A DNA stretch of 64,000 nt from Octopus vulgaris (taxonomy: Eukaryota), in assembly GCA_951406725.2 (NCBI GenBank), contig OX597832.1:23436001-23500000 (forward strand). The letters are read 5' to 3'. This document shows positions 4,775 through 30,985 of this stretch, piece by piece. Both the position numbers and the translations under genes were made by a program. A model generated the notes under the pieces. That model had not been told where the DNA came from. It saw only the letters and a program-made list of their open reading frames with translations, and did not search any database. The stretch's first letter is position 1; every line of letters starts with the position of its first letter.

Positions 4775-5540
4775 TTTCTTTTCTACTCAAAGGCACAAAG
4801 CCCAAAATTTGGGTGAGGGGATTAAGTCTGTTAGATTGACCCCAGTATGCAACTGGTACTTAATTTATCGACCCCGAAAGGATGAAAGACAAAGTCGACC
4901 TCGGTCGAATTTGAACTCAGAACGTAAAGGCAGACGAAATACTTATTTCTTTACTACCCACAAGGGGTTAAGCACAGAGGAGACAAACAAGGACAGACAA
5001 ACGGGTTAAGTCGATTATATCGACCCCAGTGCGTAACTGGTACTTAATTTATCGACCCCGAACGGATGAAAGGCAAAGTCGACCTCGGGGAATGTGAACT
5101 CAGAATGTAGCGGCAGAAGAAATACCTATTTCTTTACTACCCACAAGGGGTTAAGCACAGAGGGGACAAACAAGGGCAGACAAAGGGATTAAGTCGATTA
5201 CATCGACCCCAGTGCGTAACTGGTACTTAATTTATCGACCCCGAACGGATGAAAGGCAAAGTCGACCTCGGGGAATGTGAACTCAGAATGTAGCGGCAGA
5301 AGAAATACCTATTTCTTTACTACCCACAAGGGGTTAAGCACAGAGGGGACAAACAAGGGCAGACAAAGGGATTAAGTCGATTACATCGACCCCAGTGCGT
5401 AACTGGTACTTAATTTATCGACCCCGAACGGATGAAAGGCAAAGTCGACCTCGGGGGAATTTGAACTCAGAATGTAGCGGCAGAAGAAATACCGCTAAGC
5501 ATTTCGCCCGGCGTGCTAACGTTTCTGCCAGCTCGCCGCC
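4775..5540 (-). mobile_element. Family C SINE tetramer (unit about 183 bp)
   Basis: One head at 5540 is followed by head-less units with a 183-bp period (cagaatgtagcgg at 5101 and 5284). The last unit ends in the alternative C2 tail. Confidence 0.9.
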
Positions 5541-16548: not shown

Positions 16549-16884
16549 TATGAGTGACTCAAGACCCGAGAGTTTCGTGCGTTGGCACTTATTTCTTTCA
16601 TTGAGTACGCTACATGATAATTCTCCATACTGTTATTCGAGTTTGTCGATAGACTTCATCAAAATGCAGGAGCAGTTTCGACAATTTCGAATGTCAGCAT
16701 GGAGAATTACCATCTACCGTACACAAAGGAAACAAAATGCCAACGCATTTGGGTGTGAATATATATATATATATACCTATCTGGCAGTATATTGGATATA
16801 TATTATCCCATGGTGGGTTGAATTTTCAACCCCTATCTCATTTTATAACCTATATATATATATATATATTTATTATATAGAAGG

Positions 16885-16935
16885 AGCTTCTACAGGACTA
16901 GAACTGTTTCATTCAAGAGAAATCATCAGGAAGCT
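16885..16935 (-). ncRNA. Type I hammerhead ribozyme (mirror copy)
   Basis: Exact reverse complement of 17383-17433. Confidence 0.75.
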
Positions 16936-17382
16936 AGTTAACAAGAATTGTATTGGCATTTATACATTTAGGCAGGTTTAAAGGGGTGAGGGTGGGGGAC
17001 TTTTTGGGGGTAGGCATAGCGCAAAAAAATCATGCTTGGGGGAGTGGTCAAGAAGTCAGTGGTAAATTAGATAAAAGAATAAATAAAAGAATAAAAAAAT
17101 ATATAGAAGAATAGAGTTTTAGGTAAATACGGAGATTCTCACTTATACATATACACATATGTATATATATTTACCTAAACTCTATCCTTATTTACCTAAA
17201 ACTCTATTCTTCTATATATTTTTTTATTCTTTTATTTATTCTTTTATCTAATTTACCACTGACTCCTTGACCACTCCCCCAAGTATGATTTTTTTGCGCT
17301 ATGCCTACCCCCAAAAAGTCCCCCACCACCACCCCTTTAAACCTGCCTAAATGTATAAATGCCAATACAATTCTTGTTAACT

Positions 17383-17433
17383 AGCTTCCTGATGATTTCT
17401 CTTGAATGAAACAGTTCTAGTCCTGTAGAAGCT
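17383..17433 (+). ncRNA. Type I hammerhead ribozyme
   Basis: agcttc-CTGATGA-t ttc tctt gaa t-GAAA-cag ttctagtc ctg-TA-gaagct: 6-bp stem I, short stem II, stem III and a GUA cleavage triplet. Confidence 0.78.
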
Positions 17434-17589
17434 CCTTCTATATAATAAATTAATTTCACTCTGCTATGTATTGAGTACCTTATTTACTGTGGTTAACCCC
17501 GAATCAACCCGGGACCTACATATATATATATATATATATACGCATGTTTATTTATATTATGGGCATTAATACGCATAAATGCCTCACGC

Positions 17590-28928: not shown

Positions 28929-28995
28929 ACTACAATCGTTTCATGGCTGTACAATTCGTAATAATTCGAGTTATGGTTACAGTCAATCTTCAGGT
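28929..28995 (-). ncRNA. Hammerhead-like motif with extended stem II
   Basis: Minus strand: ac-CTGAAGA-t tgactgta ... tacagcca t-GAAA-cgattg-TA-gt. Stem I is weak, and the module is flanked by (TA)n. Confidence 0.55.
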
Positions 28996-29613: not shown

Positions 29614-30985
29614 GTTTGTTTATGTTTGTCATGTTTGTGTGTTTGTGTGTGTGTTGTGTTGTGAGTGCCTGTATGAAGATACTTGGCAAAGGTACCACGC
29701 ATTGGATCCGAACCCGAAACCACATGGTTGCAGAGCGAACTTCATTACCACGCTACTTTGTCTGCGCCTATCAATGTGTTCTATCATGTATCAAAACAAA
29801 ATTATATTTTTTTTTAAATGCACTAGGTACTGTTAAATAGGAGATTTAGCTGATATATCGAGCAGTCTAGCTCACAATTTAATTAATTTGAATAGAATAT
29901 ATTCGGGTCCGGATCTACCACATCGTTTTAAGAATCAATATAGGAGTCATCATTACGAATCAGAAAACAATTTGTGCGCTGAAATTATAAACAAGACCAT
30001 CAGCTCCTGTTTAGATCCATTTGTACGAGTACTTCTGCCTGACGAGATATAACAAGTCGAAACACCAGTGTCCTGGAATACTTGCTACTGATGAAACGAG
30101 TGTTATGAACACATATTCATCTCGTCATCACAAACGAGAGGCTGTTCACCGAACACGAGCAGAACAGCGGTTAGCATATTTGCGTTCCGATCTGTCGGAA
30201 CGTATTAGGGATAGGCACATACATGTTATTGTTTCAGGTGAAGATTTATAGATACTCGTAAAAACAGGAGTGAATTCGTGTAATTCGTGTATCATATTTT
30301 TGTCAAATATCCTGCAAGAGTTGGTAAAACGAATAATACTGTGTAGTGTAGTCTGTTAAACTTTCCGTAAAGGGAATTATAATACATTAGTACTATCGAG
30401 CGATTAAATAACGCTGGAATTGTTTATGTGAAAACCTTCGTTTGTTCGTATAAGCTGTTGAAGGTATCAATAAATTACTGTATATGAGGATCATATTTGA
30501 TCACTAGATCAAAGTATCTCATGTTCTAATAGAAATTCAGATAATATTAGATTATTCGTAGATCAAAATAGTCGTAAATTTACAAACTGCCATCGCTTCG
30601 ATGCCAAATCACGCGAAGGTTAAATCGAGTTGTACATCAATCAACATGACTGAATATTAATTAAAGAATATTAAGAATATTAATTAAAAACCTCCAAATT
30701 ACTTATGAAATACGAGTGTAACTTCGCTGTTGATGCAATTTCTATATCATTTATATAGCTCATAATATGTTGTCGTTGTCGTCGTCGTAGTCGTTCTTGT
30801 TAAGTTCCAAGCAATGAATTGACAGAGAAGTCGTTGGGTAGGATAAATGCCATGCGGAGTACCATTCGGCTTCTAGAGATCTGAGTTCAAATCCCGATCA
30901 GTTCAACATTGTCTTTCAAACTTCTGAAGTTGATAGAATAATATAACCCTCTAGGGTGAGATATTTACAGAATTGGTTAAGCATC

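Follow-up and report, generated by a model that had tools for sequence, protein, structure and literature searches.

A probable head-to-head insertion of a Hydra-clade Penelope-like element, with a hammerhead motif on each strand, in Octopus vulgaris

Described systems and the architecture of the locus

The closest described relatives of the locus reported here are the Penelope-like elements (PLEs) of the Hydra clade (Craig et al. 2021, PMC8557442), such as Penelope-13_HM and Hydra-1_Obim. As characterized in the sections of that paper used here, the proteins of this clade have DKT for DKG, RWK, a C-terminal EN, a CxCX5C linker, CxxC and CxH, and they are devoid of CCHH. The elements are generally shorter than 3 kb, are targeted to (TA)n, and carry a sense hammerhead near the 3′ end and tails of 30–40 nt. 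In the same sections, truncated copies in inverted orientation, with a tail on one side, are considered typical of such elements; Files S1 and S2 record such a copy for Penelope-13_HM, together with hammerheads on both strands. Dual hammerheads on opposite strands, 100–700 bp apart, were described for truncated PLEs by Cervera and De la Pena (2014), with a highly conserved G10.1-C11.1 pair and an extra base after A9 (PMC4209133, in the portion consulted). For Poseidon_Ac of the green anole (Frangieh et al. 2024, PMC11167929), the relevant parts of the report describe how both target strands are cut and extended in vitro, with the RT starting at two internal positions on a template that stays uncleaved. 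In LINE-1 twin priming, as summarized in the pertinent sections of PMC11702581, an inversion arises when the RT starts a second reaction at the opposite end of the target.

The locus at 16868–17520 of the window (the whole stretch of DNA analysed, 64,000 nt) resembles the Hydra-clade elements of PMC8557442 in its protein motifs, (TA)n target, sense hammerhead near the 3′ end and U-U closure of stem II. It differs from them, as far as those sections describe them, in the size of its unit (approximately 7.2 kb, with a microsatellite-filled 3′ UTR), in its tail of about 68 nt and in a stem III with an 8-nt loop. Its hammerhead is unlike that of Hydra-1_Obim, so the element represents another family. 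With Poseidon_Ac, as presented in the parts of PMC11167929 cited, it shares copy ends that lie a tail-length apart, an AT-rich target, a hairpin with an AC-rich loop that is predicted just before the tail ends and, as argued below, a template that would pass through the uncut hammerhead; Poseidon_Ac belongs, however, to another clade, and its ORF starts inside the hammerhead, whereas the ATG is at +183 here. The two hammerheads are on opposite strands, about 450 bp apart, as in the dual arrangement of PMC4209133, but with U-U and a 3-bp stem II. The inversion is reminiscent of LINE-1 twin priming, as is a probable cap-derived G, although in the sections of PMC11702581 cited the second L1 primer copies upstream of the first, whereas both arms here copy the same terminal region. 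The features of the locus are as follows.

16851..16867, no strand: (TA)n target microsatellite, left side (from the sequence; (TA)n also terminates family copies)
16868..17170, minus: left arm, an inverted, 5′-truncated, tail-less copy of the element 3′ UTR/pLTR (297 of 303 columns as in family copy L002)
16885..16935, minus: type I hammerhead motif, predicted cut between 16891 and 16890 (same as the plus-strand motif)
16958..16964, minus: TATA-like box of the left arm, a predicted promoter pointing left, outward (by mirroring of 17354–17360)
17168..17188, plus: short duplication at the head-to-head junction (TRF period 22 at 17168–17211; junction alignment)
17185..17520, plus: right arm, a 5′-truncated element end with pLTR, hammerhead and tail (336 of 338 columns as in L002)
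17354..17360, plus: TATAAAT box, 29 nt upstream of the predicted RNA start (spacing kept in family copies)
17383, plus: predicted capped transcription start, base 1 of hammerhead stem I (family 5′-end pile-up)
17383..17433, plus: type I hammerhead motif with U10.1-U11.1, predicted cut after 17427 (motif, folding and genomic copies)
17451..17520, plus: tail of about 68–70 nt, on a single arm (continues towards the ORF in tandem copies)
17521..17541, no strand: (TA)n target microsatellite, right side (from the sequence)

An inverted-repeat search of the window located arms of 266 nt each at 16868–17133 and 17185–17450, which are 98% complementary; the 5 mismatches all lie outside the hammerhead motif. 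The two near-perfectly complementary arms noted in the first-pass annotation are thus confirmed in the assembled sequence, as is the restriction of a 3′ extension (68–70 nt, 17451–17520) to the right arm. The spacer of about 60 bp that was also described is no neutral loop: 17134–17170 is further element sequence, which prolongs the left arm, and 17168–17188 is a short duplication, likely made by slippage or repair. Both outer ends lie in (TA)n, so that a target-site duplication cannot be told. Long ORFs overlapping the insertion were chance frames only.

In comparison with L002, 5–6 private differences were found in the left arm versus 2 in the right. The excess could be due to age, or to hairpin-region errors in an assembly prone to homopolymer errors. 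The left-arm alleles had 1 match in the genome, as against 1,060 for the family allele; a left arm copied from the template of another subfamily was ruled out, as these alleles are unique in the genome. It is very unlikely that the inversion represents an assembly artefact in the form of a fold-back chimera. Such an origin would fit the systematic homopolymer shortening seen in the element family and the result that, among the joints listed (15 of 125), no short-read contig or read bridged the locus. The arms, however, are not mutual copies, since they have distinct outer ends and private alleles and the left arm reaches further into the element; the same asymmetry was observed in 20 of 20 other pairs, and short-read contigs of all four runs contained sister copies joined head-to-head close to the same site.

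Two small hairpins are predicted in the tail, at 17458–17476 and 17497–17512, the second with an AC-rich loop and situated just inside the copy end. Elsewhere in the window, a tandem array with a 183-bp unit in 3.7 copies occupies 4818–5493, and we take it to resemble a common SINE-like repeat.

The parent element and its clade

The right arm gave 1,791 candidate matches in the 2.8-Gb genome, and the 40 that were scored were 98–100% identical to it. Most copies end at one and the same base before (TA)n, and 2 of 30 continue into the element body. In one genomic copy (L031), an ORF and a 3′ UTR filled with microsatellites are flanked by two hammerhead-bearing pLTRs at a distance of 7,172 nt from each other, so that the partial tandem pLTRs with hammerhead of EN+ PLEs are present. 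The parent element, in the same genome, is a 7.2-kb unit with a single ORF for RT and GIY-YIG of 713 aa, counted from the ATG (L040). Its 3′ UTR (L031:820–5800) is approximately 4.7 kb in length, rich in TA and TG and similar to microsatellite DNA; it includes an inverted duplication and is unusually long for the Hydra clade. Beside a full-length copy are what are presumably a decayed CR1-like RT fragment and a calpain-like exon (L032:180–1240 and 1603–1884). The element was also covered in two sequencing runs that may be of RNA, a coverage that says nothing about the 16868–17520 locus.

The ORF was continuous in 2 of the 20 near-full copies (L040 and L048), while the other 18 break at one C-run. 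In short-read contigs of all four runs this C-run is one base longer than in the assembly, so the break is an assembly error (homopolymer shortening). As the shortening is seen in 18 of the 20 copies L038–L057, at the C-run between the RT thumb and the linker, intact copies are under-counted. We rejected a programmed −1 frameshift between RT and endonuclease, which the shared break had suggested: the continuous copies have an interrupted, longer run, and the contigs carry the additional base.

The protein contains YRDD, RWR, DKT, a CxCX5C linker (CNCPDKTTC), a GIY-YIG-like block without CCHH and with no Cys pair between the GIY and YIG positions, and CxxC and CxH (CDLC and CMH). RWR is found in the parent family, and RWK in most of 16 aligned homologues. 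Protein homologues numbered 1,117 among 7,992 sequences scored; two of those scanned match Pfam GIY-YIG, and one matches RVT_1 below the cut-off. Searched against Pfam, the element’s own protein gave no RT or GIY-YIG match, and in a PDB profile search it gave weak prion-protein noise only.

On the basis of these motifs, rather than of an RT tree with named references, the parent is assigned as a probable Hydra-clade C-terminal EN+ PLE. The RWK-like motif, DKT, C-terminal EN, CxCX5C linker, CxxC and CxH, absence of CCHH and insertion in (TA)n were all found; the 7.2-kb unit departs from the clade’s general size, which is a descriptive and non-diagnostic trait. The first-pass reading of a young Penelope-like insertion with the inverted-terminus geometry known for such elements is supported by the 98–100% identical copies, the parent ORF and the inverted pairs described below. 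The locus is one of many unremarkable stubs from a family that is new within a known clade. It is very probably a 5′-truncated, head-to-head insertion in (TA)n, which likely arose from two opposite-strand cDNAs.

The hammerhead motif and the predicted fate of read-through RNA

The motif agcttc-CUGAUGA-U-uuc-ucuu-gaa-U-GAAA-cag-uucuaguc-cug-UA/gaagcu is identical on the plus strand (17383–17433) and the minus strand (16935–16885), and its predicted plus-strand cleavage triplet is GUA at 17425–17427. The type I hammerhead core (CUGANGA, GAAA, NUH) and three stems are present. There is accordingly one complete hammerhead motif per strand, as had been claimed. Their description as intact holds for the sequence; in a local Rfam scan at the locus, on the other hand, no hammerhead family was matched at E<=10, and the active fold amounts to 3.6% of the predicted ensemble. 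For the motif alone, the active fold was predicted at −7.3 versus a minimum of −7.6 kcal/mol (z 0.17), with pair probabilities of 0.72–0.99 for stem I, 0.12–0.17 for stem II and 0.33–0.38 for stem III; in these predictions the motif is marginal when alone. An Rfam scan of the whole window returned, in the best 150 of 263 matches, only microsatellite-driven and similar chance matches.

The G10.1-C11.1 closing pair is absent from the motif at the locus, and U-U stands in its place. It is apparent that this is not the unusual feature for which it was first taken, but the family norm. U-U at 10.1-11.1 was found in 6,236 genomic copies with four loop-II variants; a base other than U was seen at 10.1 in 15 copies and at 11.1 in 10, and G-C in none. 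The closure is, moreover, already tabulated for the Hydra clade: by our own count in File S2 of PMC8557442, as consulted, the pattern core-U...U-GAA occurs in 14 of 25 families. According to the portion of PMC3088659 cited here, U10.1-U11.1 occurs naturally and supports more cleavage than other mispairs. Neither the inverted geometry nor the U-U closure is new.

A second U-U closure had been placed at 28929. A hammerhead-like U-U core does lie at approximately 28993–28930 on the minus strand, with a long stem II containing one mismatch and a weak stem I, but it sits inside a (TA)n-flanked repeat of a different family. Hammerhead-like cores with a G-C closed stem II were observed at 30039 (plus), 52265 (minus) and 10129 (minus), and these are probably the ends of other Penelope-like families.

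It had also been suggested that ribozyme cleavage and dsRNA formation would compete in transcripts of the locus, and here the folding predictions point elsewhere. Forcing the hammerhead fold in read-through RNA changed the predicted energy from −477 to −390 kcal/mol for the plus strand and from −482 to −395 kcal/mol for the minus strand, which gives the duplex an advantage of about 87 kcal/mol on either strand. Whichever side read-through transcription enters from, the antisense arm is synthesized before the other arm, at whose distal end the hammerhead is located; by this geometry the duplex could zip before the hammerhead exists. A 266-bp duplex that silences the ribozyme, and not a balanced switch, would therefore be expected. 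The predicted promoter in each arm points outward, and a transcript from it would carry the ribozyme without its antisense.

That the locus acts as an RNA switch in which cleavage competes with formation of long dsRNA is, in our judgement, highly improbable. Both motifs are, of course, complete in sequence, U10.1-U11.1 hammerheads can cleave (PMC3088659, portion cited), and the 266-bp hairpin would be expected in read-through RNA. Against these stand not only the energetic advantage of the duplex and the order of the arms, but also the occurrence of the same layout in hundreds of family copies, the youth of an insertion with no sign of selection, and the low share of the active fold even for the motif alone. 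Metazoan PLE hammerheads are, in addition, described in the parts of PMC4209133 and PMC11167929 consulted as weak or as requiring protein or a dimer. The two hammerheads are very probably passengers of the insertion, with no purpose-built switch.

Inverted pairs, 5′ ends and a proposed route of insertion

Inverted pairs are common in the family. A sample of 100 motif matches, the first of 3,437, contained 33 divergent neighbour pairs no more than 15 kb apart and 1 convergent pair; a divergent pair was present in 32 of the 62 clusters of this sample. Twenty of the 33 pairs (14 within 1 kb and 6 longer) were analysed further, with their ends read from the sequence, and each had one tailed and one tail-less arm, the tail-less end falling no more than about 10 nt from the position of 17450. 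The inverted 5′-truncated copy with a one-sided tail, a trait of EN+ PLEs, was thus found at the locus and in all 20 pairs. Six short pairs invert exactly at the opening AGCT of stem I, and 648 perfect palindromes centred on AGCT at the first bases of the hammerhead were found genome-wide (including L080, L082–L085 and L087). These are minimal two-hammerhead insertions of approximately 200 nt. In one further case (L030; G000:C2:99686780–99687478), two insertions stand tail-to-tail at one (TA)n repeat, which indicates repeated use of the target.

A retrozyme or MITE-like fold-back element moving as a unit would likewise be short and without an ORF, and would have inverted ends and hammerheads. 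This origin is nevertheless exceedingly improbable: the tandem array of hammerhead units by which non-LTR retrozymes are recognized is absent, the inversion points vary between copies from 0 to >10 kb, the junction and left-arm alleles are unique, with no other copy seen to have the same junction, and the arms are plain fragments of an autonomous element.

The 5′ ends of the copies were informative as to the template. All 100 listed copies were covered; the search pattern begins at AGCT, so that this census counts copies that extend at least as far as AGCT. Of the 100, 35 start exactly at hammerhead base 1, compared with about 4 that are truncated somewhere in the 30 nt before it. Palindromes make up 14 of these 35, the other 21 are non-palindromic, and among the latter 18 have G at −1, where the element itself has T. 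When 9 joins that were possibly templated by the partner were dropped, G was present at −1 in 9 of 12 versus 1 of 24 at −2/−3 (Fisher p 2e-5). Genome-wide, the count was made for G alone, and H-G-AGCT was found in 309 copies. TATAAAT or CATAAAT lies at a constant 29-nt spacing in copies of all four loop-II subfamilies, although the spacer sequence differs, and the ORF ATG is 183 nt downstream of the predicted start (L031). An AUG occurs inside the hammerhead at 17405–17407 (stem II/core), i.e. +23 from the predicted start, and a further AUG at +83, still upstream of the ORF ATG.

An extra G at full-length LINE-1 5′ junctions reflects the cap (PMC11702581, sections cited), and both Penelope and Chlamys are known to have a start site inside their pLTR (PMC2377424 and PMC8557442, in the parts consulted). 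From these patterns we infer that the capped RNA of the family starts at base 1 of the hammerhead. The single-base pile-up, the non-element G and the TATA spacing together suggest a capped, uncleaved, sense RNA as the template. The extra G could instead result from a terminal-transferase bias of the RT, and the pile-up from a structural block of the RT at stem I. None of the 20 near-full-ORF copies begins at the predicted start, and one short copy starts there and runs into the ORF (L091/L168). In the openly accessible literature that was searched, no account of a cap footprint, or of an RNA beginning at hammerhead base 1, was found.

The route that we propose begins with cleavage of both (TA)n strands by the RT-endonuclease of the element, which would prime two cDNAs; by analogy with the two-strand reaction of Poseidon_Ac, this is likely. 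Within the RNA, copying would have two starting points separated by about 68 nt (ends 17450 and 17518–20), which would give one tail-less and one tailed arm. At the present locus the cDNAs would have ended once about 300 and 335 nt of the 3′ pLTR had been copied, and their two ends would have been joined with the short duplication. Where copying began in the 5′ pLTR, it would run off at the cap, and the ends would anneal via AGCT or join with filler; such run-off would account for the minimal palindromes, which are very common. Where it began in the 3′ pLTR, it would stop at variable points, as at 16868–17520.

An inversion produced by self-priming or fold-back of a single nucleic acid, e.g. 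an antisense template, rather than by two primed cDNAs, is possible but unlikely. Palindromes at inverted junctions have been read in this way for rotifer Penelopes, with the question left open (PMC3846280, in the part cited), and the 648 junctions that are perfect AGCT palindromes would agree with it. Many junctions, however, have non-templated filler and G before AGCT, sometimes on both arms, as is expected of two run-off cDNA ends from capped sense RNA. A zero-loop snap-back at AGCT would probably be sterically unfavourable, and the arms of one listed palindrome (C1:112392607) differ at core position 7.

Two run-off cDNAs remain the preferred origin of these junctions. A non-element base precedes 5′ ends at the predicted cut in 44 copies, and at the control site in 60. 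On inspection, 18 of 30 were true joins at the predicted cut, 8 of these via stem-I microhomology; at the control site 8 of 30 were joins or part-joins, and the cut and control patterns cover different subfamily sets. No footprint of cleavage in vivo was found: starts at the predicted cut were not clearly enriched over the control site, which is in line with an uncut template. Self-decapping can be envisaged, in which a cut 45 nt from the cap would remove the mRNA from translation and only uncut RNA would be copied. The scheme as a whole (start at hammerhead base 1, G as a copy of the cap, capped uncleaved sense template, two internal primings and self-decapping switch) is one that we favour slightly.

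With its thousands of near-identical copies and continuous ORFs, the family would be a practical model, and its hundreds of inverted repeats are a potential source of dsRNA. The pile-up with the extra G makes an exact prediction for CAGE or 5′-RACE. The census bears, finally, on whether PLEs copy sense or antisense RNA and on the function of PLE hammerheads, questions that are left open in the parts of PMC3846280 and PMC8557442, respectively, that were consulted.
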